Of a stretch of 64,000 nucleotides of DNA, positions 31,315 to 43,010 are shown piece after piece. Both the position numbers and the translations under genes were made by a program. The stretch is taken from NCBI GenBank assembly GCA_009784085.1, contig WRCJ01000001.1:66-64065 (forward strand), in the 5' to 3' direction. This stretch comes from Oscillospiraceae bacterium. Lineage in GTDB: Bacteria > Bacillota > Clostridia > Oscillospirales > UBA929. The number at the start of each line of letters is the position of its first letter. Positions within the stretch are counted from its first letter, which is position 1. Below the pieces are notes generated by a model. That model was not told where the DNA came from. It saw only the letters and a program-made list of their open reading frames with translations, and ran no database searches.

Positions 31315-31651
31315 TACTCTTATTTCCTCCTTGGTGCATAAAGTTTGCGATGGACACGTCAAGTTATTCTATCATGTGGGGTGCGGCCTGTAAACGTAAA
31401 ATATAGAATTCATCGCTTTTTTTATCATGATTCGCGCGAGACGGCCGCGTACCGCCGGATTGCACTCGGATCACACTCGGATCACACTATAGTTATCGAA
31501 CCGGGGGCGGCGTTTGTTAACCGCCGCGCCGCGCCCTACTTGCGGTTTTTACGAGAATATGGTATCATGCAGGTAGGAAGCTCGGTTGTGATTGCTTCTA
31601 TGACTGACGTGGCGTACACACGATATACACACGGCTGCGGGGACAAAGAAC

Positions 31652-33637
31652 ATGACGCTCATGACAAACTATGAGGAAAACTATATCGCGGCGCGGCGCC
31701 AAGCCCGTCGCTACCTGTCCGAACACGCGGGGGATTCGGGCCTTCTCCCCGTGCTTTCCACTGTCTTGGGAAGCATGCGGCCGGCTGGCGAATATCGGAT
31801 GGGGCTCTTCGAGATCCCGCTGAAAAAGGTAGTGGGCACCTGCTCGGCCAGCCGGCGCGATTCCTTCGCCGGCAACTTCATGCCGCTTTGGCCCCATAAA
31901 GGCGAACCCGCCCATAAATGGATGTCCGTCTATCGCAGCCATGATGACGAGGGCCTGAACCACCCCGTCAACGCATATGAGTACTTGGGATACTACTACA
32001 TCGAGGAGGGGCATAAGCGGGTAAGCGTCCTCAAAGCGAGCGGCGCATACTCGGTTTCCGCCGAAGTTATCCGTGTATTGCCCGCCTGGGACGCCGATGA
32101 CCACGATATCGCCGTGCTCTACGAGTACTACCGGCACAACCGCTCCCTTATCGTCCGCCACATGTGGTTTTCCAGGCCCGGCCGCCTGCGTTGGCTGTTT
32201 GCCGAAGCGGCGCGCACGGTGGGCGGCGACGACGGCCCCGGCAAACCCGGCGGCCCCGATAGTCCCGGCAAACCCGGCGGCGTCGACATCCCCGGCGGCC
32301 TCGGCAGGCCCATCAGCTCCATCAGTTCCATCAGCGCCAGTGGCCCCAACGACACCGACGGCGCCGACGAATGGCTGAACCATTGTTTCACGCTGTTTCG
32401 AAAACGCTATCACGCCGAGGGATTCGGCGAGTGGCCCATGACCACGGGCGACGCTTTTTACACCTATGTCCAGATCTTTGGCCTTCACGCCCAAACCGAC
32501 GACACTGCGCTGCGCGTCGAACTGACAGCCTGCGCCACGCAATGGCGGCTCGACCTCCTCCACCTGGGCGCCAGCGACCCGGAGGGCTGGGTCTCTTCCC
32601 TGTCCCACAAGGTCCCCAATATCATCGCGCCCAAAACGCGCCCCGCGGCGTACGCCTTCGCCTTCGAAGGCACGCCGCATGACAACGAAACCACGCATCT
32701 GCATAGCATCGCGCGGTACAGGCTGTCGGTACAAAACCCCGAACTCTACTTGCCGGCGCGAGAGGGGTTGCCTCCCGGCGACGAGGCGTGGCCGGCTTTC
32801 GAAGCCTTGTTGTCCGAAGGCCCGCGCTACCTGTTCGTCCCTTCGCCTACACACGCCCGCTTGGCTTGGCGGGCCGCCCTTCTGAGCCCGGATACCACCG
32901 TGGTGCACATGGGCGCGGAACATCCCCCGCCCCGCCGCCTGGCAACCTGTTGGGGCAACACACAAGAACCGGCTTTGCTGGCCGGCGCTTTGGCGGGCCT
33001 GTTGACGCGCACCGAGCGCATCGCCGTCGTCTCCTCGCCCGGCGAGCAGAACCTCTGCCAAGCGGTGGCCTTTGCCGCCGGGGCATCCCTAACGGCCCCG
33101 CGCGCGCAACTGCTGTACCACGAGCGGGACGGTATGTCTTGGGGGTGGGGGCAAATCCGGGCAGCCTTCGCCGTCCAGAAAGCCGATATCGCTTGGCTAC
33201 CGGCCACCGCAGACCCGTTGCAATCCCTCCGGACTTTTCCCGGCGTATACGCCCACCTCTGCCTCCTCTCGGAAGGCGACGCCTCTATCCTCGACATCGT
33301 GGCCGGCGCCGCTTGGCATTGGAGTGCCTTCTATCTGCTCTTGTCATCCGGGACCCCGCGCGACGGGATACCGAACGCGGAAGGCGCCACGAAAGAGAAC
33401 CTGCGCCTACGCCTGGGCATGTCCCATGGATTGGTCGATCTGCATCTGGCGCATGCCCTGCTGCCAGCCGGCGCGTTGCGCCTTCTCAGTATCCTCCGGC
33501 AGAGCATAGCGTCCGGGGAGCTGGACGCAACGGGCGCGGGCACGGCGGGTACGTCGGGCGTGGCGGGCGCGGCAGGTGCGGCGGGCGCGGCCCCGCCGGA
33601 CACGTTGCCGGACAACCTATCCGTGCTGTCTTTGTGA
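31652..33637 (+). CDS. Cytoplasmic protein with a ParB/Srx-like N-terminal region and a BMP/periplasmic-binding-protein-like C-terminal region (family usually annotated as BMP family or hypothetical)
   Basis: The N-terminus YEENYIAARRQARRYL..LFEIPLKKVVGTCSASRRDSFAGNFMPLWP...VNAYEYLGYYYIEEGHKRVSVLKASGAYSVSAEVIRVLP matches, from memory, a clostridial family. There is no signal peptide. It has Gly/Pro-rich and SSI tandem inserts. Confidence 0.4.
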   Translation: MTLMTNYEENYIAARRQARRYLSEHAGDSGLLPVLSTVLGSMRPAGEYRMGLFEIPLKKVVGTCSASRRDSFAGNFMPLWPHKGEPAHKWMSVYRSHDDEGLNHPVNAYEYLGYYYIEEGHKRVSVLKASGAYSVSAEVIRVLPAWDADDHDIAVLYEYYRHNRSLIVRHMWFSRPGRLRWLFAEAARTVGGDDGPGKPGGPDSPGKPGGVDIPGGLGRPISSISSISASGPNDTDGADEWLNHCFTLFRKRYHAEGFGEWPMTTGDAFYTYVQIFGLHAQTDDTALRVELTACATQWRLDLLHLGASDPEGWVSSLSHKVPNIIAPKTRPAAYAFAFEGTPHDNETTHLHSIARYRLSVQNPELYLPAREGLPPGDEAWPAFEALLSEGPRYLFVPSPTHARLAWRAALLSPDTTVVHMGAEHPPPRRLATCWGNTQEPALLAGALAGLLTRTERIAVVSSPGEQNLCQAVAFAAGASLTAPRAQLLYHERDGMSWGWGQIRAAFAVQKADIAWLPATADPLQSLRTFPGVYAHLCLLSEGDASILDIVAGAAWHWSAFYLLLSSGTPRDGIPNAEGATKENLRLRLGMSHGLVDLHLAHALLPAGALRLLSILRQSIASGELDATGAGTAGTSGVAGAAGAAGAAPPDTLPDNLSVLSL

Positions 33638-35766: not shown

Positions 35767-37254
35767 TTACTCTATCTCATAGAGATTGTCCTTGTTTCCG
35801 AGGTAGAATTTTAAGCGTGGCGCAATGGGGTACGGCTTGCCGGGGGTAAGCCTCGTGCCATTCTCCAGATACGTCCCATAACGGGAATTATTATCGATTA
35901 GGCGCAGCGCCCCCCCAATCCGGACGATCTCGCAGTGAATCGAGCTGATGCCGGGCGCCGTCGTGGGATAGACGACATGGCAGCGGGTGGCGTCCCTTCC
36001 CAGCGCGAGCTTGTCGCCATGCAACGGGAACAGCCTACCGGCAAACGGCCCCGTCAGGCCCCGCAGGCCCGTGGGCACGGGCGCGGATTGCGGCACGGGC
36101 GGCGGCACGGGTACGGGCGCGGATTGCGGCACGGGCGGCGGGACCGGCGCAGGTACAGGTTGCGGCATGGGCGGCGGGACGGGTACGGGCGGTGGGACGC
36201 GCAGGGGCGCGTCCCCTACAAGGGACGGGGGATGCGGCACGGGCGGCGGGACGCGCTGGGGCGCGTCCCCTGCAAGGGACGGGGGATGCGTGGCGGCGAC
36301 GGCGGCTTGCGGGAACGCCAAAACCTCCACGACGCCTTTTTTGATGATATAGAGCAAGATTATCCAAGCCGCGACGATCAGCAGGACATACTTAATGGCT
36401 TCCACGGGGGGAATCCCCAAAATGGAGAACGACAGTTTAATGTTCAGCAACTCGGATACATCCAGATTCCATATAAAGTGAAGCAAACATGCCGCGGCAA
36501 AGCAGAGCAAGAAACGTACGTTCACAAAATGGCGGGGGCGCAGCCGGCCGCGTCCCCGGGCAAGCATCAGCGCCCCGCCGTAAAGGGCCGCCCACACCGT
36601 GTGGGCGCCGAGGGCAAGCACCCCCCTGGCCAGTATGGTCTGCATCCCGTAGTTGTTCGTGTATCCCATGGTTTCTATGGCGGCAAAACCTGCGCCCACG
36701 GCCGCGCCGATCAGCACGCCATTGAGGGTGTATCGGTATTTCGGTTTGAGGACAAACAGGCAGATCACCAGCAATTTTGTGGGTTCTTCCGTAAGCGGCG
36801 CCAAAATTGCCTTCATATTGGGAATCATCCTGTTAAAGAGGAATGAGAAAATGATGGACAACGCACCACCGACGAAAATCATGCCAAGGATGAGGTAGAT
36901 CGGGATATTGCGCGGGATATTCATTTCCCACATCAGCAGGACAACGATGAGGGGCAAGACCAGCGCCCCGGCAAAAATCATCGGGATCCGGGCATACGTA
37001 CCCCCTCCGACCACGTCGAGGATGTACAAGGCCACGATAAACAGGAGGGCAAAGATCCCCACCCGGGAAAACAGCCACGGCTTTTTCCACTGAGAGACCA
37101 TTTGATCTTCCCGCGGCGTCGATAGGGACGTGCCGGCCAAAAACATGCTCGCCCCGTCTTCGCTTTTATGTTTCTTGAAAACGTCGGAAAAGATATCCCT
37201 CCATGTAATCTCCTGCTTGGCGGCTTTCCTGAAGAATATTGTGTTGCCTGCCAT
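35767..37254 (-). CDS. PrsW-family intramembrane protease fused to a C-terminal FHA domain
   Basis: The polytopic N-terminal half has an EExxK motif (LTEEPTKLLV), FAAIETMGY and GAHTVWAALYGG, as in PrsW. A Pro-rich linker follows. The C-terminal LALGRDATRCHVVYPTTAPGISSIHCEIV...DNNSRYGTYLNG is FHA-like. Confidence 0.7.
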   Translation of the reverse strand: MAGNTIFFRKAAKQEITWRDIFSDVFKKHKSEDGASMFLAGTSLSTPREDQMVSQWKKPWLFSRVGIFALLFIVALYILDVVGGGTYARIPMIFAGALVLPLIVVLLMWEMNIPRNIPIYLILGMIFVGGALSIIFSFLFNRMIPNMKAILAPLTEEPTKLLVICLFVLKPKYRYTLNGVLIGAAVGAGFAAIETMGYTNNYGMQTILARGVLALGAHTVWAALYGGALMLARGRGRLRPRHFVNVRFLLCFAAACLLHFIWNLDVSELLNIKLSFSILGIPPVEAIKYVLLIVAAWIILLYIIKKGVVEVLAFPQAAVAATHPPSLAGDAPQRVPPPVPHPPSLVGDAPLRVPPPVPVPPPMPQPVPAPVPPPVPQSAPVPVPPPVPQSAPVPTGLRGLTGPFAGRLFPLHGDKLALGRDATRCHVVYPTTAPGISSIHCEIVRIGGALRLIDNNSRYGTYLENGTRLTPGKPYPIAPRLKFYLGNKDNLYEIE

Positions 37255-37303: not shown

Positions 37304-38137
37304 CTACAATACCCTGAATTCGTTCTCAGGCGAAGCCAGATAGAAGCTGTCGCCGGGTTGCAACATGACGCCCTGATGGGGGTTGAGCTTTCTCCCGCCG
37401 GCCAAAAAGGTGCCATATGAGGAGCCTTTGTCCGTGAGCATGAGGCCGGCTGGCAACGCCGACAGTTCGCAGTGCAGGGAGCTGATTCCACTGGTATTGG
37501 CGGGGAATACGATCTGGCACCGCCTCGGATCCCGCCCAAAGGACAGCGATGTGCCAAGCGGGAAATTCGCGCCCGCAAAATGCCCTTTTGTACAGATAAG
37601 CTGGCTCCCCCCATGAGAAGCCACCATGGGACCTGTCACGAGCGGCGTCGTATAGGCGGGCGCAGGGGGCGTCGCCGGATAGGTAGGCGCCGGAGGGGGC
37701 GGGGGAGGCGTCGCCGCGTACGGGGCGGCCTGGGGCGGCGGGGCTTGGGGCGGTGGCGCCGCCGCATACGGGGCGGCCGCCGGAGCCGCTTGGCCTTGCT
37801 TTTTTCCTTTTTGGCTGAGCATCACAATGAGGATAATGAGCGCCAAACCCAGCACCGCCACGAGGATCACCCACCAGTATTCGGATAAGAAATCCGACTG
37901 CGGCGGGGGTTCCTCTGTCACCGGGGGGGGGCCGTCCGTTTCGTCCCCGCTCGGGTCAAAGGGCGGCGGCGGCGGGTCGTCCGGATCCTGGGAAGGTTGC
38001 GGGGGCGGCTTCGGGTTGTCGGCTAGCAACACCGGCGTCCCAGCCCTCGCATAAGCCACGCCCATCGCAACAGGCGTCAGGCATATGGCAACAGCAAGGA
38101 GAACAATAACGATCTTTTTCATACGGCTCACTCTCAC
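37304..38137 (-). CDS. Single-pass membrane protein with signal peptide, Pro-rich ecto-segment, TM, Pro/Ala-rich linker and a cytoplasmic FHA domain
   Basis: MKKIVIVLLAVAICLTPVAMGVAYA; TM WWVILVAVLGLALIILIVML; FHA SFGRDPRRCQIVFPANTSGISSLHCEL...DKGSSYGTFL. It has a GTGA overlap with the PP2C stop. Confidence 0.7.
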   Translation of the reverse strand: MRVSRMKKIVIVLLAVAICLTPVAMGVAYARAGTPVLLADNPKPPPQPSQDPDDPPPPPFDPSGDETDGPPPVTEEPPPQSDFLSEYWWVILVAVLGLALIILIVMLSQKGKKQGQAAPAAAPYAAAPPPQAPPPQAAPYAATPPPPPPAPTYPATPPAPAYTTPLVTGPMVASHGGSQLICTKGHFAGANFPLGTSLSFGRDPRRCQIVFPANTSGISSLHCELSALPAGLMLTDKGSSYGTFLAGGRKLNPHQGVMLQPGDSFYLASPENEFRVL

Positions 38138-39297
38138 AATATCTTTAGTATGATTGCGGTAAAATTGTCTTGATACGGCATAGCCTTATCCAGCACTGCT
38201 TTTTCAAGCAGAAACGCGCTTTCGTGTGGGTCGGCCGCCATGGTGGCCATGATTTCCTCATCGGACAGCGCATTGAAAACGCCATCCGACATGAGCAGCA
38301 CCCGATCATGGGGCAACAATTGCACGGGTTGGTTATTTCGGTCGATTTTCTCTATGTTCTCCATCCCCAAATAGCTGGTGAGCGCTTTGCGCTGCGGGTC
38401 GCCCAAGGCCGCTTCCCAGGTGATCGCCCCGTGCGCGGCCCGCTCGTCCAGTTCCACGGCGTATGTGTGCTCGCGGTTAATCTGGAGCAATGCGCCGCCC
38501 CGAATCAAGTATATCCTGCTGTCGCCGACCGATATCCAATACATCTTCCCGGCATGGACAATCACCGCCACTACGGTGGCGCCGCCTTTTTCGTAGCCGG
38601 CCATGTTGAGCAGGATTTGATCGTTGGTAGAAATCAGCATTCTTAAGAGGAATTCTTCCGGGGTCTGGGCGACTTCGTCTTCGATAAACATATTCAACAT
38701 GATTTGCGTCGCCATATTGCTGATGGCGGCGCCCCCGGGCAGCCCTCCCATACCGTCGGCCATGACGCAGAACACGCCCTTCCTCTCGAATAGTTCCCTG
38801 TTGGAAATATCCGATATGGCGAAGCTGTCCTGCTGGCTATCCCGGCTTCCGATATGGTGCGCGTTGCCAATCATGACCTGGCCAAACATGGCCGGCGCGG
38901 CTACCGTGGGTACGACAAGCGTTGGCGCGGGTGCCATTGGCGCGGCGGCCGGTGGCATAGCTATTGTAGGCGCAGCGGCTGCCGTTGGCGCTACCGCCAT
39001 TGGCGCGGCGGCCGTTGGCAAAGCTACCGTCGGCGCGACCGCCGGCACGGCTACCGTGGGCGCGACGCCTGTTGGCGTGGCTGCCGGCGGCACGGCCATT
39101 GTCGGTACAGCCGCCGGCGGCACGGATCCTGTCGGCGCGGGTCCTGTTGTCACAGGGATGCCCGACGTGACCATGACCGTCTTGGTCATGGCCGCGCCTT
39201 CCTTATCCGGGGCTTCCGCGGCCGGTGGCGCCATGACGAGCGGCGCCACCACCGCCTTCGCTTCGGATTTTTCTTTCTTTTTCTTTTTATTAAACAT
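38134..39297 (-). CDS. PP2C-family Ser/Thr protein phosphatase with an Ala/Pro/Thr/Val-rich N-terminal region
   Basis: GSRDSQQDSF, VMADGMGG, VGDSRIYL and LLMSDGVFNAL. The start is taken at ATG 39297 (MFNKKKKKEK); GTG 39312 is an alternative. Confidence 0.82.
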   Translation of the reverse strand: MFNKKKKKEKSEAKAVVAPLVMAPPAAEAPDKEGAAMTKTVMVTSGIPVTTGPAPTGSVPPAAVPTMAVPPAATPTGVAPTVAVPAVAPTVALPTAAAPMAVAPTAAAAPTIAMPPAAAPMAPAPTLVVPTVAAPAMFGQVMIGNAHHIGSRDSQQDSFAISDISNRELFERKGVFCVMADGMGGLPGGAAISNMATQIMLNMFIEDEVAQTPEEFLLRMLISTNDQILLNMAGYEKGGATVVAVIVHAGKMYWISVGDSRIYLIRGGALLQINREHTYAVELDERAAHGAITWEAALGDPQRKALTSYLGMENIEKIDRNNQPVQLLPHDRVLLMSDGVFNALSDEEIMATMAADPHESAFLLEKAVLDKAMPYQDNFTAIILKIL

Positions 39298-39312
39298 ACC
39301 TCTTACAACCAC

Positions 39313-39981: not shown

Positions 39982-41907
39982 TTATTTCCAATATGCGCAT
40001 AGATTGATAAGTTCCCCGGGCGCCAGGTTGGGAAGGGTAAATGATTCTCCCGCCTGCACCACTACATAGGCCCAATCATCCGGCTTGGAGGCCCTTGAGT
40101 AGTATCCCAGCTCGTCCCCGCGCCTGCACAACCAGCTGCGCCTGTTTACGCTGTACACGTACCAACCGCCAAAGGTGTTCGGCGCCCCGTCTTTGATAAA
40201 TTCGTTTGCCTTGATGGGAAGGGGCGATCCAACCTGCGCGGTTACCGGCGCCATTGTTCCGTACCCGCCCATGGCGTTGTATTTGACGGAAAACTCGCCC
40301 CCCGTTTCCCAAACGGCGTAAAGGGTTAGCGTGTCGTTGGCCTCGGGGCTGAAGCCGACTGTCTTCCATGCGTCTTTGAATACTTTCTTTGCCGCGCCGG
40401 TGGGCTGGCCGCCATCTGCAAAGTACTCCATTTCGCCGTTGTTGTCGTAAATCCACATCCCAAGTTTTTCGCTATAGATATTCCAACCCGCAAAGGCGTA
40501 CCCTTCCCTGGTAAACTGGTTGTTGGGCAGGCGCCATTCGACGCCATCGACGGCCGATATCTCCGTCATTTGCCCCATGCCCCCGTTTGCGTTAAACAAC
40601 AGGGTGTAGACATCGTCGCCGCTCCATACCGCTACCAGCGTAACGACGTCGTTATCTACTGTCCCGAGCACGTCGACGGTTGCCCCATCTGCCAGGTATG
40701 CGTTTTCCCAACCTGCGGGCTGCATCCCATCCGGGGAATAACCGTACTCGACGCCGTTCGTGTACAACCATCCGGCGTTTTTCGCGCTGTAGGCCGCCCA
40801 TCCGTAAAACTCTGCCGAACCGTTCGTAAACTGGTTTTGCGGCAAGACCAGGCTTTCCCCGACTTCGCTCATCACCTGCGCCATTTCCCCGACGCCTCCG
40901 TTGGGGTTGAAGTTGATGAGGAACGTCTCGCTCTTCGGCGGTTCCGGCGACGGGGTAGGCTTCGGCGTTGGCGTTGGGTCGTCGGGGTCCGGCGTCGGGT
41001 CGTCTGGCCCCGGCGTCGGGTCGTTGGGCGGCGGCGTTGGGTCGTCTGGCGGATCAGGATCATCCGGATCTTCGACCGACCCTACGGTGTAGGCGTACCC
41101 CCTTTGAATGGCGATCTCATAGGAAACATAGGCAAATCCATGATCTGCCCAGTCATCCCCCCAGGAGTTGATGAACTTGAAGGCTTGGATATCGTCGTCA
41201 AACCCCACCAGGCATATGGCGTGTCCCCCGAGCATATTGCCTGTCTGTACGTTATATATGTAATTGTTGGTATTGATACTGTAGAAAGACTCGTAGATAT
41301 CGATGCCCACGACCACCCCGTAGTTTTCGTAGATGGCTTGCTTGATCTGGTTCGTCCCATCGATGGTAGCGAATTCCGAAATGCGGTAATTGTACGCGCT
41401 ATCCCGTTGCGCGCTGTTGGGCTGCGTGAGATAATCATTATCCGAATACGGCATTTCGTTCCAAGTACAAACACCTTGCTCCTGCAATAGTTCCATGGCA
41501 TCGGAGATGTAGGAGCCCCTGTCTTCGCCCCCGTTGATCTGGTTGTACACATAGGCGGGGCTGAACAGGTTGTCTTTGTCATAGTTGCCGTTCCCGCCTA
41601 CCATGTTGAGGCAGCTCCTCAAGGCGTAGGCCGTAGCCCAAGCGACACAACTCCCCTGGCCCCCCTGATCGCCGGGGGGAGGGAACATGTCGGCGTTGTC
41701 GAACTTCTTGGGCAGCGCCGCCGTGTCCACCGACATCGTGAACATTTTGGCGGCGACCTTTTCCGGGTCGTCGTCTAAAAACCCTAAACCATAGCTAGCC
41801 CATTTGTTGTTGGGGTCTTGACTTGCGTCGTCCGTGCAGCCGGCAAAGAGCGCGAAGAACATGCAAAATACCAGCAACAATGCCCCTAAAGACCGTTTCT
41901 TTTTCAT
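39982..41907 (-). CDS. Lipoprotein papain-like (C1 family) cysteine peptidase with a Pro/Asp/Thr-rich linker and three Listeria-Bacteroides (InlB B-repeat / Flg_new) domains
   Basis: Lipobox LFAGC. Catalytic contexts are QGGQGSCVAWA (Cys), GGHAICLVGFDD (His) and INSWGDDW (Asn). There are three repeats of the form F..NANGG.G.M......G....LP.N.FTR.GY.F.GW......LYAVW. Confidence 0.8.
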   Translation of the reverse strand: MKKKRSLGALLLVFCMFFALFAGCTDDASQDPNNKWASYGLGFLDDDPEKVAAKMFTMSVDTAALPKKFDNADMFPPPGDQGGQGSCVAWATAYALRSCLNMVGGNGNYDKDNLFSPAYVYNQINGGEDRGSYISDAMELLQEQGVCTWNEMPYSDNDYLTQPNSAQRDSAYNYRISEFATIDGTNQIKQAIYENYGVVVGIDIYESFYSINTNNYIYNVQTGNMLGGHAICLVGFDDDIQAFKFINSWGDDWADHGFAYVSYEIAIQRGYAYTVGSVEDPDDPDPPDDPTPPPNDPTPGPDDPTPDPDDPTPTPKPTPSPEPPKSETFLINFNPNGGVGEMAQVMSEVGESLVLPQNQFTNGSAEFYGWAAYSAKNAGWLYTNGVEYGYSPDGMQPAGWENAYLADGATVDVLGTVDNDVVTLVAVWSGDDVYTLLFNANGGMGQMTEISAVDGVEWRLPNNQFTREGYAFAGWNIYSEKLGMWIYDNNGEMEYFADGGQPTGAAKKVFKDAWKTVGFSPEANDTLTLYAVWETGGEFSVKYNAMGGYGTMAPVTAQVGSPLPIKANEFIKDGAPNTFGGWYVYSVNRRSWLCRRGDELGYYSRASKPDDWAYVVVQAGESFTLPNLAPGELINLCAYWK

Positions 41908-42001: not shown

Positions 42002-42114
42002 CTGTTTTTTAGTGATTTTCTAATTTTTCCACGTCGGCGCCACAACGATACCGCGTCGGCGCCACGGTCGACAACACGGGCGGCGACCCGGGCGGCGACG
42101 CAACGTCCCTGCGG

Positions 42115-42143
42115 TTGACAAGGCGGCCCTTATGGGGTAAACT
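42115..42143 (+). promoter_or_regulatory. Promoter candidate (TTGACA, 17 nt spacer, TAAACT)
   Basis: ttgaca at 42115-42120 and taaact at 42138-42143, upstream of the MBL-fold gene. Confidence 0.5.
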
Positions 42144-42188
42144 GTTCTCGGATACAACCATTTCTATCAGCAAGGGGATAAAAACCAT

Positions 42189-43010
42189 ATGCGTATACGC
42201 TATCTCGGCACCGGAGCCTCGGAAGGCTTCCCCGGCGTGTTTTGCCAGTGCCCGACCTGCGTGGAAGCGCGCTTGCATGGCGGGCGCAACATTCGCCGCC
42301 GCTCGGCCATGCTCATCGACGGCGTTTTGCTGGTCGACTTGCCCCCGGACTTGCTCTCGCAATCCTTCGAGTGGAAAATCGACATGGGCGCCATTCGCTA
42401 TTTGTTGGTGACGCATACCCACCACGACCACTTTTACGCAGCCGAACTGGCCAACCTGCGCGCGCCGTACACGCTGTCGTCCACGCGGGAAAAGATGGTC
42501 GTGCTTGGTAGCGTGGCCGTATGGGAACGCATGGTAGAAACCCTTGGCGCCGAGGAACTGATACGGCTTGAGGATGTGCTGTCGTATCATGAGCTCAAGC
42601 TATTCGAGCCGGACACCATCGGTCCCTATACCATCACGCCCCTCAAAGCCCGCCACTGCCCCGGCGCGTTCATCTATCTGATTGAAAAGGATGGCCGCGT
42701 CCTGCTGTATGGAAACGACACAGGGTTTTTCCCGGAGGAAACATGGGATTACCTGGCGGGCCGGCGCGTGGACATGGTCAGCATGGATTGCACGAACCCC
42801 CTCCATGCGGACACGCCCAATCATATGACGCTGGAAGACAATGTCACGGTGAAGAGGCGCATGTTCCAGCAAAAGAGCGCCACCGCGCATACGCGATACA
42901 TGGCGACGCATTTTTCCCACACGTCGGGCCTACTTCACCGCCCGATGGAGGATCGCCTGCGCCTGTACGGCGTTGGCATGGCCTATGACGGCCTGGAAGT
43001 TGAGATATGA
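42189..43010 (+). CDS. MBL-fold metallo-hydrolase (PhnP/beta-CASP-unrelated small type)
   Basis: GTGASEGFPGVFC..C..C, and the metal motif LLVTHTHHDHF. Confidence 0.7.
   Translation: MRIRYLGTGASEGFPGVFCQCPTCVEARLHGGRNIRRRSAMLIDGVLLVDLPPDLLSQSFEWKIDMGAIRYLLVTHTHHDHFYAAELANLRAPYTLSSTREKMVVLGSVAVWERMVETLGAEELIRLEDVLSYHELKLFEPDTIGPYTITPLKARHCPGAFIYLIEKDGRVLLYGNDTGFFPEETWDYLAGRRVDMVSMDCTNPLHADTPNHMTLEDNVTVKRRMFQQKSATAHTRYMATHFSHTSGLLHRPMEDRLRLYGVGMAYDGLEVEI

Follow-up and report, generated by a model that had tools for sequence, protein, structure and literature searches.

A PrsW-type intramembrane protease fused to an FHA domain, and its kinase, PP2C and FHA gene context in Clostridia

The PrsW-FHA gene and its predicted protein

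A 64,000-nt stretch of contig WRCJ01000001.1 (assembly GCA_009784085.1, Oscillospiraceae bacterium), here called the window and used for all position numbers unless another locus is named, carries on its minus strand, at 35767..37254, the gene of a PrsW-type membrane protease fused to an FHA domain, which we refer to as PrsW-FHA (Table 1). The open reading frame (ORF) starts with an ATG located 6 nt downstream of a strong Shine-Dalgarno sequence (GAGGAGGAG) and proceeds through 495 codons to its stop, with neither internal stops nor frameshifts. An independent gene caller gives the same 495-aa product on the public contig, and the NCBI entry for the identical protein is named 'MAG: PrsW family glutamic-type intramembrane protease [Oscillospiraceae bacterium]' (MAG, metagenome-assembled genome). 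A previous reading of the window, made from the sequence alone, had proposed this fusion and had named two genes separated by an unnoticed frameshift or stop as the case that would speak against it; the continuous ORF and the identical independent call show that both halves form one gene, and the fusion itself is borne out by profiles, motifs and structural evidence. Both Pfam families that the same reading had proposed for a check scored above their cut-offs, namely PrsW-protease (PF13367) at aa 145–272 (E=8.5e-22, 78.1 bits vs a cut-off of 23.5) and FHA (PF00498) at aa 418–480 (E=1.2e-10, 42.1 bits vs a cut-off of 20.7). The protein consists of a PrsW-family core with eight transmembrane (TM) helices, a disordered Pro-rich linker and the C-terminal FHA domain, and an AlphaFold2 model of its 495 aa, built on 57 homologues, reached a mean predicted local distance difference test (pLDDT) score of 86.5, with both the membrane core and the FHA domain above 90.

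The active-site motifs were defined as in the published work on Bacillus subtilis PrsW/YpdC (EExxK, FxxxE, H and HxxxD/N), and conservation was evaluated in 57 fused homologues and, separately, in 35 unfused relatives. Three of the motifs had been quoted in the sequence-only reading and are indeed found, as LTEEPTK (E156-E157-x-x-K160), FAAIETMGY (F190...E194) and HTVWAALYGG (H218), together with a fourth one, H259-F-I-W-N263, that was absent from it. In the first motif E156 and K160 are invariant and E157 is kept in at least 90% of the fused proteins, all three residues being present in 35/35 unfused relatives; in the fourth, H259 is invariant and residue 263 is N in at least 90% of the fused members and D in 32/35 of the unfused ones.

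Hydropathy, the AlphaFold2 helices (aa 61–84, 86–111, 119–143, 149–168, 176–202, 204–233 with a kink at 216–218, 240–263 and 283–321) and the charge statistics point to eight TM helices with both termini inside the cell (N-in/C-in). The loops predicted as cytoplasmic in the 57 homologues carry 7.1 Lys and Arg residues per protein, or 15.6 when the N-terminal region (mean 8.5) is included, vs 0.42 in those predicted as external. With this predicted topology the FHA domain would be cytoplasmic, as needed to meet the products of a kinase. The depth of the active site was read from sequence position within the helices and from helix boundaries, not from model coordinates: E156/E157 lie 7–8 residues from the external end of TM4, E194 8 residues from that of TM5 and H218 about 12 residues from that of TM6, with H259/N263 at the very end of TM7. 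This closeness of the catalytic residues to the external helix ends suggests an active site in the outer-leaflet half of the membrane.

The N-terminal region (aa 1–60) is modelled as short helices with pLDDT values of 80–96 and, as it is conserved in fused and unfused proteins alike, belongs to the protease subfamily rather than being an FHA-specific phosphosite. T42 and T46-P47, considered as FHA-specific autoregulatory phosphosites, were ruled out because they are equally invariant in the 35 unfused relatives. A further stretch that is invariant in fused and unfused members, W109-E110-x-N112-I-P-R-N116-I, occupies the TM2-TM3 loop (aa 109–117; 36904–36930, minus strand). Together with H29, G41-T42, T46-P47 and P59, this loop makes up a second conserved site on the predicted cytoplasmic face, far from the catalytic motifs, for which a role as gate, plug or substrate entry can be imagined. 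The presence of this second site defines the PrsW subfamily to which PrsW-FHA belongs.

The linker is of about 75 aa in the window protein vs a family median of 20 aa (range 9–83). The domain that follows (aa 396–495) is modelled as a beta-sandwich with pLDDT above 90, and Foldseek superposed it on the FHA domains of DgcB, MDC1, FhaA, GarA and ArnA with a root-mean-square deviation of 1.6–2.5 Å (prob 1.00), the top structural match being Sulfolobus ArnA. The family profile matched 59 PDB sequences (E<=1), nearly all of FHA-domain proteins and including GarA and OdhI. The string of FHA residues given in the sequence-only reading is present, as LGRDATRC...GISSIHCEI...LIDNNSRYGTYLENG, but the distance between its C and S is of 11 residues and not of the 7 drawn, the dots being schematic. 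G419, R420 and H440 are invariant and S437 is kept in at least 90% of the 57 fused homologues, where S457, G460 and T461 are likewise invariant or conserved at 90% or above; judging from these residues, the FHA domain is phosphate-competent and a predicted reader of phosphothreonine (pThr). The invariant catalytic motifs and pThr-binding residues, taken with the published Rce1-like modelling of PrsW, make a pseudo-protease or a phospho-blind FHA domain unlikely. The FHA domain of PrsW-FHA shares 42% identity with that of the adjoining bitopic protein (E=6e-26) but hardly resembles that of the Zn-ribbon-FHA protein (E=0.009), a pattern which suggests that the membrane-anchored proteins have an FHA subtype in common and plausibly also bind a single type of ligand.

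The operon in the window and its relatives

PrsW-FHA is the fifth of six co-directional genes separated by gaps of 0–70 nt, reduced to 0–49 nt in the stretch comprising the FHA, PP2C, FHA, PrsW-FHA and kinase genes (Table 1). No convincing terminator was found within the six-gene run, which ends against a convergent gene. The receptor kinase gene starts 41 nt past the PrsW-FHA stop with its own Shine-Dalgarno sequence, and its product is composed of an N-terminal Zn-ribbon, a Hanks kinase domain with the VAIK, HRD, DFG and APE motifs all intact, a Thr/Pro/Met-rich juxtamembrane segment, a TM helix (aa 390–408) and an extracellular leucine-rich repeat (LRR) region with a C-terminal domain. The bitopic FHA protein has a signal peptide, an ectodomain of about 60 aa rich in Pro and Asp, a TM helix (aa 90–108) and a cytoplasmic FHA domain, and the C1 peptidase at the head of the run carries Listeria-Bacteroides repeats. 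The sequence-only reading had inferred a coupling of the protease to kinase signalling; this is strongly backed by the kinase gene 41 nt downstream, by the PP2C and two FHA genes upstream and by the recurrence of these genes across loci.

Table 1. Genes of the six-gene run and sequence features of PrsW-FHA (window positions)
Feature	Position	Strand	Details and support
Secreted papain-family C1 cysteine peptidase lipoprotein, first gene of the run	39982..41907	-	Peptidase_C1 1.9e-16, Flg_new; lipobox LFAGC
Zn-ribbon-FHA protein, 199-209 aa	39313..39942	-	Pfam FHA/Yop-YscD_cpl
PP2C-type Ser/Thr phosphatase, 387-392 aa, soluble, Pro/Ala-rich N-terminus	38134..39312	-	PP2C_2 1.2e-11; no TM helix
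Bitopic FHA protein, 272-277 aa	37304..38137	-	Pfam FHA 7e-10; topology
PrsW-FHA gene, 495 aa + stop	35767..37254	-	ORF; Pfam PrsW + FHA
N-terminal cytoplasmic region, aa 1-60	37075..37254	-	Conserved D20, F22, H29, G41-T42, T46-P47, W56, K58-P59
Predicted eight-helix membrane core TM1-TM8, aa 61-321	36292..37074	-	AlphaFold2, hydropathy, positive-inside statistics
Motif 1, E156-E157-P-T-K160 (EExxK), TM4	36775..36789	-	Equals B. subtilis PrsW E75E76xxK79
Motif 2, F190-A-A-I-E194 (FxxxE), TM5	36673..36687	-	Invariant in fused and unfused; equals B. subtilis F110xxxE114
Motif 3, H218, TM6 kink	36601..36603	-	Invariant in fused and unfused; equals B. subtilis H138
Motif 4, H259-F-I-W-N263 (HxxxN/D), outer end of TM7	36466..36480	-	Equals B. 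subtilis H175xxxD/N179
Pro-rich disordered linker, aa 322-395	36070..36291	-	pLDDT about 45-62 (AlphaFold2)
FHA domain, aa 396-495	35770..36069	-	G419-R420, S437-x-x-H440, S457, G460-T461, N465-G466
Receptor Ser/Thr kinase, 683 aa	33674..35725	-	Pkinase 1.9e-29; LRR_4/LRR_8 (Pfam)

Thr88 of the Zn-ribbon-FHA protein (codon 39679–39681) stands about 15 aa before the FHA core, where the window reads GRTQSVFKK, and is invariant in 40/40 orthologues (e.g., L007:7023-7619 and L012:8172-8774) within the motif [D/E]xx[R/K]-T-[V/Q]-[A/S]-[V/I/L]. Since T-x-x-hydrophobic is the classical FHA ligand pattern, this Thr, lying in T-x-x-[V/I/L], is a candidate pThr ligand.

Some further features of the window were recorded. 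In the intergenic segment 37255–37303 (minus strand), a 7-bp tandem repeat, (GCTAGTG)x3-4, reading 'gctagtggctagtggctagtggctag' and having a TAG in each unit, follows the stop codon of the bitopic FHA gene and precedes the PrsW-FHA Shine-Dalgarno sequence. Every protein encoded between 33674 and 39312 (minus strand) contains Pro/Ala/Met-rich low-complexity segments, i.e., the N-terminal part of the PP2C (about 140 aa), the linkers of the bitopic FHA protein and of PrsW-FHA, and the juxtamembrane repeats of the kinase (SATMxAPM, HAPMS), which look like a lineage-specific expansion of linkers. The convergent gene is a 661-aa ORF (31652–33637, plus strand), called on the public contig and Gly/Ala/Pro-rich in its middle and tail; it gave no match to Pfam, PADLOC or the neighbour families and is not conserved beside the cluster in other loci. 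Two other ORFs, at 42009–42590 (minus strand, 193 aa) and 31598–33061 (minus strand, 487 aa), were rejected as members of the operon: both are Arg/Gly/Ala-rich, free of Pfam matches and uncalled on the public contig, and are probably shadow ORFs of a GC-rich region. An identity as an anti-phage defence system was also set aside, as PADLOC-DB gave nothing specific: neither PrsW-FHA nor any of the FHA proteins nor the C1 peptidase matched, and what remained was kinase-domain similarity of a generic kind (PD-T4-6, mad6) and a weak match of the PP2C.

The sequence-only reading had also suggested that the taxonomic spread and the genomic partners of the fusion be catalogued, and both proved extensive. 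Both domains were present in 80/97 matches of a 90%-identity database. A 50%-identity library yielded 316 representatives at E<=1e-30, and PrsW and FHA occurred together in 109 of the top 150, whose domain make-up was counted, thus in at least 109 clusters, with the FHA domain C-terminal every time. Fused forms were found in Oscillospiraceae, Lachnospiraceae (including the cultured Murimonas intestini DSM 26524 and Lientehia hominis NSJ-141), Selenomonadaceae and unclassified Clostridia/Bacillota MAGs, and some homologues also bear an N-terminal zinc ribbon (PF13240). The unfused relatives with the same N-terminal region come mostly from Bacilli (Listeria, Brevibacillus, Paenibacillus, lactobacilli), with a few from Clostridia and Selenomonadaceae. 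In a neighbour-joining tree of the membrane domain, 33/33 unfused proteins fell in one clade that contained no fused member, a clean split which is consistent with a single fusion event.

Relatives were then sought in one genome per species, and among the 372 genomes having one, the best 80 were analysed together with five metagenomic loci. Six-frame ORFs around 49 fused and 36 unfused genes were searched with the window's own domains, accepting those on the same strand within 6 kb. Another FHA gene was detected beside 47 of the fused genes, a kinase beside 44, a PP2C beside 44 and a Zn-ribbon-FHA gene beside 30, vs one, two, one and one, respectively, for the unfused ones; moreover, the lone positive unfused locus, L025, proved to be a fused gene truncated where its contig stops. 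Receptor kinases, PP2Cs and further FHA proteins are tight and specific companions of the fused form. When genes were called independently and annotated with precomputed Pfam domains, the same order appeared at just 29–39% identity, as in the series FHA, PP2C, Trypsin+FHA, PrsW-FHA, PP2C, VWA+FHA, kinase, kinase, or in the series kinase, kinase, FHA, PP2C, FHA, PrsW-2xFHA, VWA, PP2C, kinase, TerD.

According to neighbour clustering and Pfam, the full module comprises one to four kinases (61/83 of them bitopic), one or two PP2Cs, the Zn-ribbon-FHA protein (40/47 loci), the bitopic FHA protein and, in 19 loci, a vWA-FHA protein. The bitopic FHA gene is usually directly upstream of PrsW-FHA, and in 14/25 cases its product has an extracellular trypsin-like domain (Pfam Trypsin_2), the layout being signal peptide, extracellular S1 trypsin-like protease, TM helix and cytoplasmic FHA domain (compare L002:8630-9943, L007:9053-10486 and L013:8882-10294); many loci therefore encode a second, FHA-tethered protease. 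The bitopic FHA protein of the window is an orthologue of these trypsin-FHA proteins (44% identity to that of L007, with the same 'SEYWWV' at the start of the TM helix) which has lost the protease ectodomain and kept signal peptide, TM helix and FHA domain. A C1 peptidase, carrying a Lectin_like domain, is encoded in five Lachnospiraceae loci devoid of a trypsin-FHA gene (L008, L009, L011, L012 and L020; e.g., L012:15235-16632), and the window itself holds a minimal version of the module with a C1 peptidase gene heading the operon, which suggests that the extracellular protease is an interchangeable part.

Variants were also observed. A Selenomonadaceae-type form has two FHA domains after PrsW (L004:9340-11070; L005/L035, P0047, 576 aa) and adjoins a vWA, PP2C, kinase and TerD set, an association of the 'TerY-P triad' type, and a DUF805-FHA protein. 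Two adjacent PrsW-FHA ORFs of 471 and 490 aa occur in a Lachnospiraceae MAG (L085). Finally, a complete Clostridial-type cluster with 48% identity is present in a chromosome recorded as 'uncultured Desulfobacter sp.' (L021, OY759748.1), which could reflect horizontal transfer or a mislabelled or misbinned record.

Possible mechanism and alternative explanations

Taken as a whole, these data make it fairly probable, in our judgement, that PrsW-FHA is a PrsW-family (Rce1/CPBP-like, glutamate-type) intramembrane peptidase, predicted to be active, which is coupled through its cytoplasmic FHA domain to reversible Ser/Thr phosphorylation by the kinase and PP2C of the operon. The receptor kinase would sense a signal through its extracellular LRRs and, once activated, phosphorylate Thr sites, either on itself or at the invariant T-x-x-V/I/L of the Zn-ribbon-FHA protein. 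The FHA domain could then dock the protease onto the phospho-protein, or docking could relieve an autoinhibition, and the protease would cut a bitopic membrane partner near the outer face, in the way B. subtilis PrsW does with RsiW, until PP2C resets the system.

Among the cis-encoded proteins the receptor kinase is the best candidate substrate, as no other bitopic protein is found in essentially all loci and as it is the sole one in minimal Lachnospiraceae loci; shedding of its ectodomain could serve as feedback or activation, but we propose this tentatively and would not expect it to hold. The bitopic (trypsin-)FHA protein comes as a second cis-encoded candidate. With comparable doubt, PrsW-FHA might be the intramembrane arm of an 'FHA-tethered protease' module of Clostridia, in which pThr marks set by the kinase would recruit the shared FHA subtype present on the extracellular protease, on the vWA-TM-FHA protein and on PrsW-FHA, thus licensing by phosphorylation a two-step (site-1/site-2-like) cleavage of the kinase or of another bitopic partner. 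The extracellular protease of such a scheme would be the trypsin-TM-FHA protein, functionally replaced in some loci by the secreted C1 peptidase.

Several points weigh against the coupling of PrsW-FHA to phosphorylation as outlined. Substrate and pThr ligand are candidates only, and the enrichment of Thr in the kinase juxtamembrane segment is modest (7.7% vs 5.4%) and not decisive for FHA docking. The depth assigned to the active site derives from positions in helices and not from coordinates, and a search of the full-text literature found no experimental work on any PrsW-FHA member. Moreover, the FHA domains of some membrane machines, such as YscD and EssC, are phospho-independent scaffolds. 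The FHA domain of PrsW-FHA might similarly be a constitutive, phosphorylation-independent assembly module, as in the type III (YscD) and type VII (EssC) secretion systems, tethering the protease to other FHA proteins while proteolysis is regulated otherwise, e.g., by an envelope signal. The many FHA proteins of the locus, suggestive of a large complex, would agree with it, as would a pThr ligand that is so far a candidate only and a weak secondary match to Yop-YscD_cpl (PF16697); this match, however, is of 19.8 bits, under the cut-off of 33.2, the residues expected to bind phosphate (G419-R420, S437, H440) show invariance or at least 90% conservation across the 57 homologues, and the kinases and PP2Cs to which the fused form is specifically linked look active, so that we regard a pure scaffold as unlikely. 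The same judgement applies to the possibility that PrsW-FHA is mainly a target of the kinase, with the FHA domain docking on the kinase and phosphorylation of the protease or its linker switching off or on a housekeeping or quality-control activity towards trans-encoded substrates. FHA proteins such as GarA and FhaA are typical Hanks-kinase substrates, and the unfused relatives, sharing the same core and widespread in Bacilli without a kinase context, suggest a generic substrate; yet the linker is short across the family (median 20 aa) and, with 14% Ser/Thr, not rich in these residues, and of the protein's Thr residues none proved peculiar to the fused clade, with T42 and T46 conserved in unfused proteins too.

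The sequence-only reading had referred the membrane half to the PrsW that cleaves RsiW. The assignment to the PrsW family stands, and the common Pfam family, the same four motifs and the predicted outer-face active site, which fits extracytoplasmic cleavage of RsiW, would all suit an orthologue of the B. subtilis/Clostridioides difficile PrsW, i.e., a site-1 protease for an anti-sigma factor of the extracytoplasmic function (ECF) type having FHA as a second input. Orthology to the RsiW site-1 protease does not stand: the NCBIfam PrsW equivalog (NF033739) scores 34 bits vs a cut-off of 225, PrsW-FHA has an extra N-terminal domain and TM helix compared with the 218-aa PrsW, and no ECF sigma/anti-sigma gene was found within ±10 kb of PrsW-FHA, in the homologous loci inspected or among the recurrent neighbour families of 47 loci, although a distal pair is possible. 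The sole Sigma70_r4-like match near PrsW-FHA is a 121-aa UPF0122 protein beside ffh. We therefore consider such an orthologue very improbable. Even less credit, close to none, is given to an export or processing peptidase of a polymorphic toxin (the class of Zhang et al. 2012) or to a two-gene annotation or assembly artefact. A PrsW domain N-terminal to variable C-terminal domains is a hallmark of that toxin class, but the C-terminal domain is here FHA and not a toxin, none of the neighbours is an immunity-like gene, and Zhang et al. (PMC3482391) separate the FHA-fused from the toxin versions; as for an artefact, the fusion recurs in constant order in at least 109 clusters at 50% identity and in 49 genomes, and the ORF is continuous.

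Relation to known systems and significance

B. subtilis PrsW (YpdC; PF13367, NF033739) cuts RsiW on the extracytoplasmic side. PrsW-FHA is a member of that Pfam family and carries the four motifs in consecutive TM helices with similar spacing (34/28/41 residues vs 35/28/37 in B. subtilis PrsW), and its predicted outer-face active site would fit the cleavage of bitopic substrates just outside the membrane, as in B. subtilis. It differs by the additional N-terminal cytoplasmic domain, one more TM helix, the long linker and the C-terminal FHA domain, and by its surroundings, where sigW/rsiW-like neighbours are absent and a kinase/PP2C/FHA operon is found instead.

At the superfamily level, and as judged from sequence, PrsW-FHA also resembles Rce1, the type II CAAX prenyl protease of the CPBP superfamily, whose catalytic residues it keeps. 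In published modelling, PrsW could be superposed on the four helices that form the catalytic core of archaeal Rce1, EExxK and HxxxD matching EExxxR and HxxxN. PrsW has an extra His in the catalytic site (H218 here) that is not in Rce1.

Fusions of PrsW to 'phosphopeptide-binding FHA domains', as well as to PilZ, cNMP-binding and Zn-ribbon domains, were described by Zhang et al. 2012 (PMC3482391), who read the FHA fusions as signalling peptidases, and a PrsW-PilZ fusion of Leptospira, LIC_20173, was discussed in 2026. PrsW-FHA, having a cytoplasmic signal-reading domain on a predicted-active PrsW core, belongs to this signalling class. The architecture and its 'signalling peptidase' reading are thus already in the literature and in database annotation, and the idea of a link between kinase and protease is not new, being preceded by Zhang et al. 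2012; both that study and the Leptospira reports cover the architecture with no more than a sentence or an entry in a supplementary list. A search of the full-text literature found no description of the conserved multi-FHA, multi-protease operon with kinase and PP2C.

The gene order FHA, PP2C, polytopic membrane protein and kinase recalls the actinobacterial fhaA-pknB cluster, and the FHA structures of Rv1747 FHA-1, FhaA and ArnA are among the structural and sequence matches of PrsW-FHA. Known systems that combine FHA domains with Hanks kinases and PP2Cs include the Mycobacterium tuberculosis ABC transporter Rv1747, with two FHA domains, and the fhaA-fhaB-pstP-rodA-pbpA-pknA-pknB cluster, PpkA/PppA/Fha1 of the Pseudomonas aeruginosa type VI secretion system and ArnA/ArnB of Sulfolobus. 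Their common principle is that a receptor Hanks kinase writes pThr, an FHA domain on a membrane protein reads it and a PP2C erases it. The effector is here an intramembrane protease, vs a transporter, a cell-wall synthase or a secretion apparatus in those systems, with no orthology beyond the shared domains. The Thr of the Zn-ribbon-FHA protein (GR-T-QSVF / (R/K)TVA(V/I/L)) is reminiscent of the ETTSVF phospho-switch of GarA/OdhI; this putative phosphosite belongs to a protein which, unlike GarA/OdhI, has an N-terminal zinc ribbon (an ArnA-like architecture) and an FHA domain of a different subtype.

Judging by the extracellular proteases and by the ectodomains of LRR or beta-propeller type that accompany it, the module may sense or remodel the cell surface or ligands derived from the host. 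Gut and rumen Clostridia carry the family in abundance, cultured species among them, which makes it accessible to experiment. How PrsW-type site-1 proteases are activated is an unsolved question, even for B. subtilis PrsW, and the PrsW-FHA clade, whose protease bears a predicted pThr reader of its own and is regularly accompanied by a receptor kinase and a PP2C, offers a genetically defined input. Were the two-step reading true, regulated intramembrane proteolysis would be controlled from the cytoplasmic side by Ser/Thr phosphorylation; and if point mutants of the kinase, the phosphatase and the FHA domain were found to gate cleavage, PrsW-FHA would be a clear example, in bacteria, of intramembrane proteolysis governed by Ser/Thr phosphorylation.

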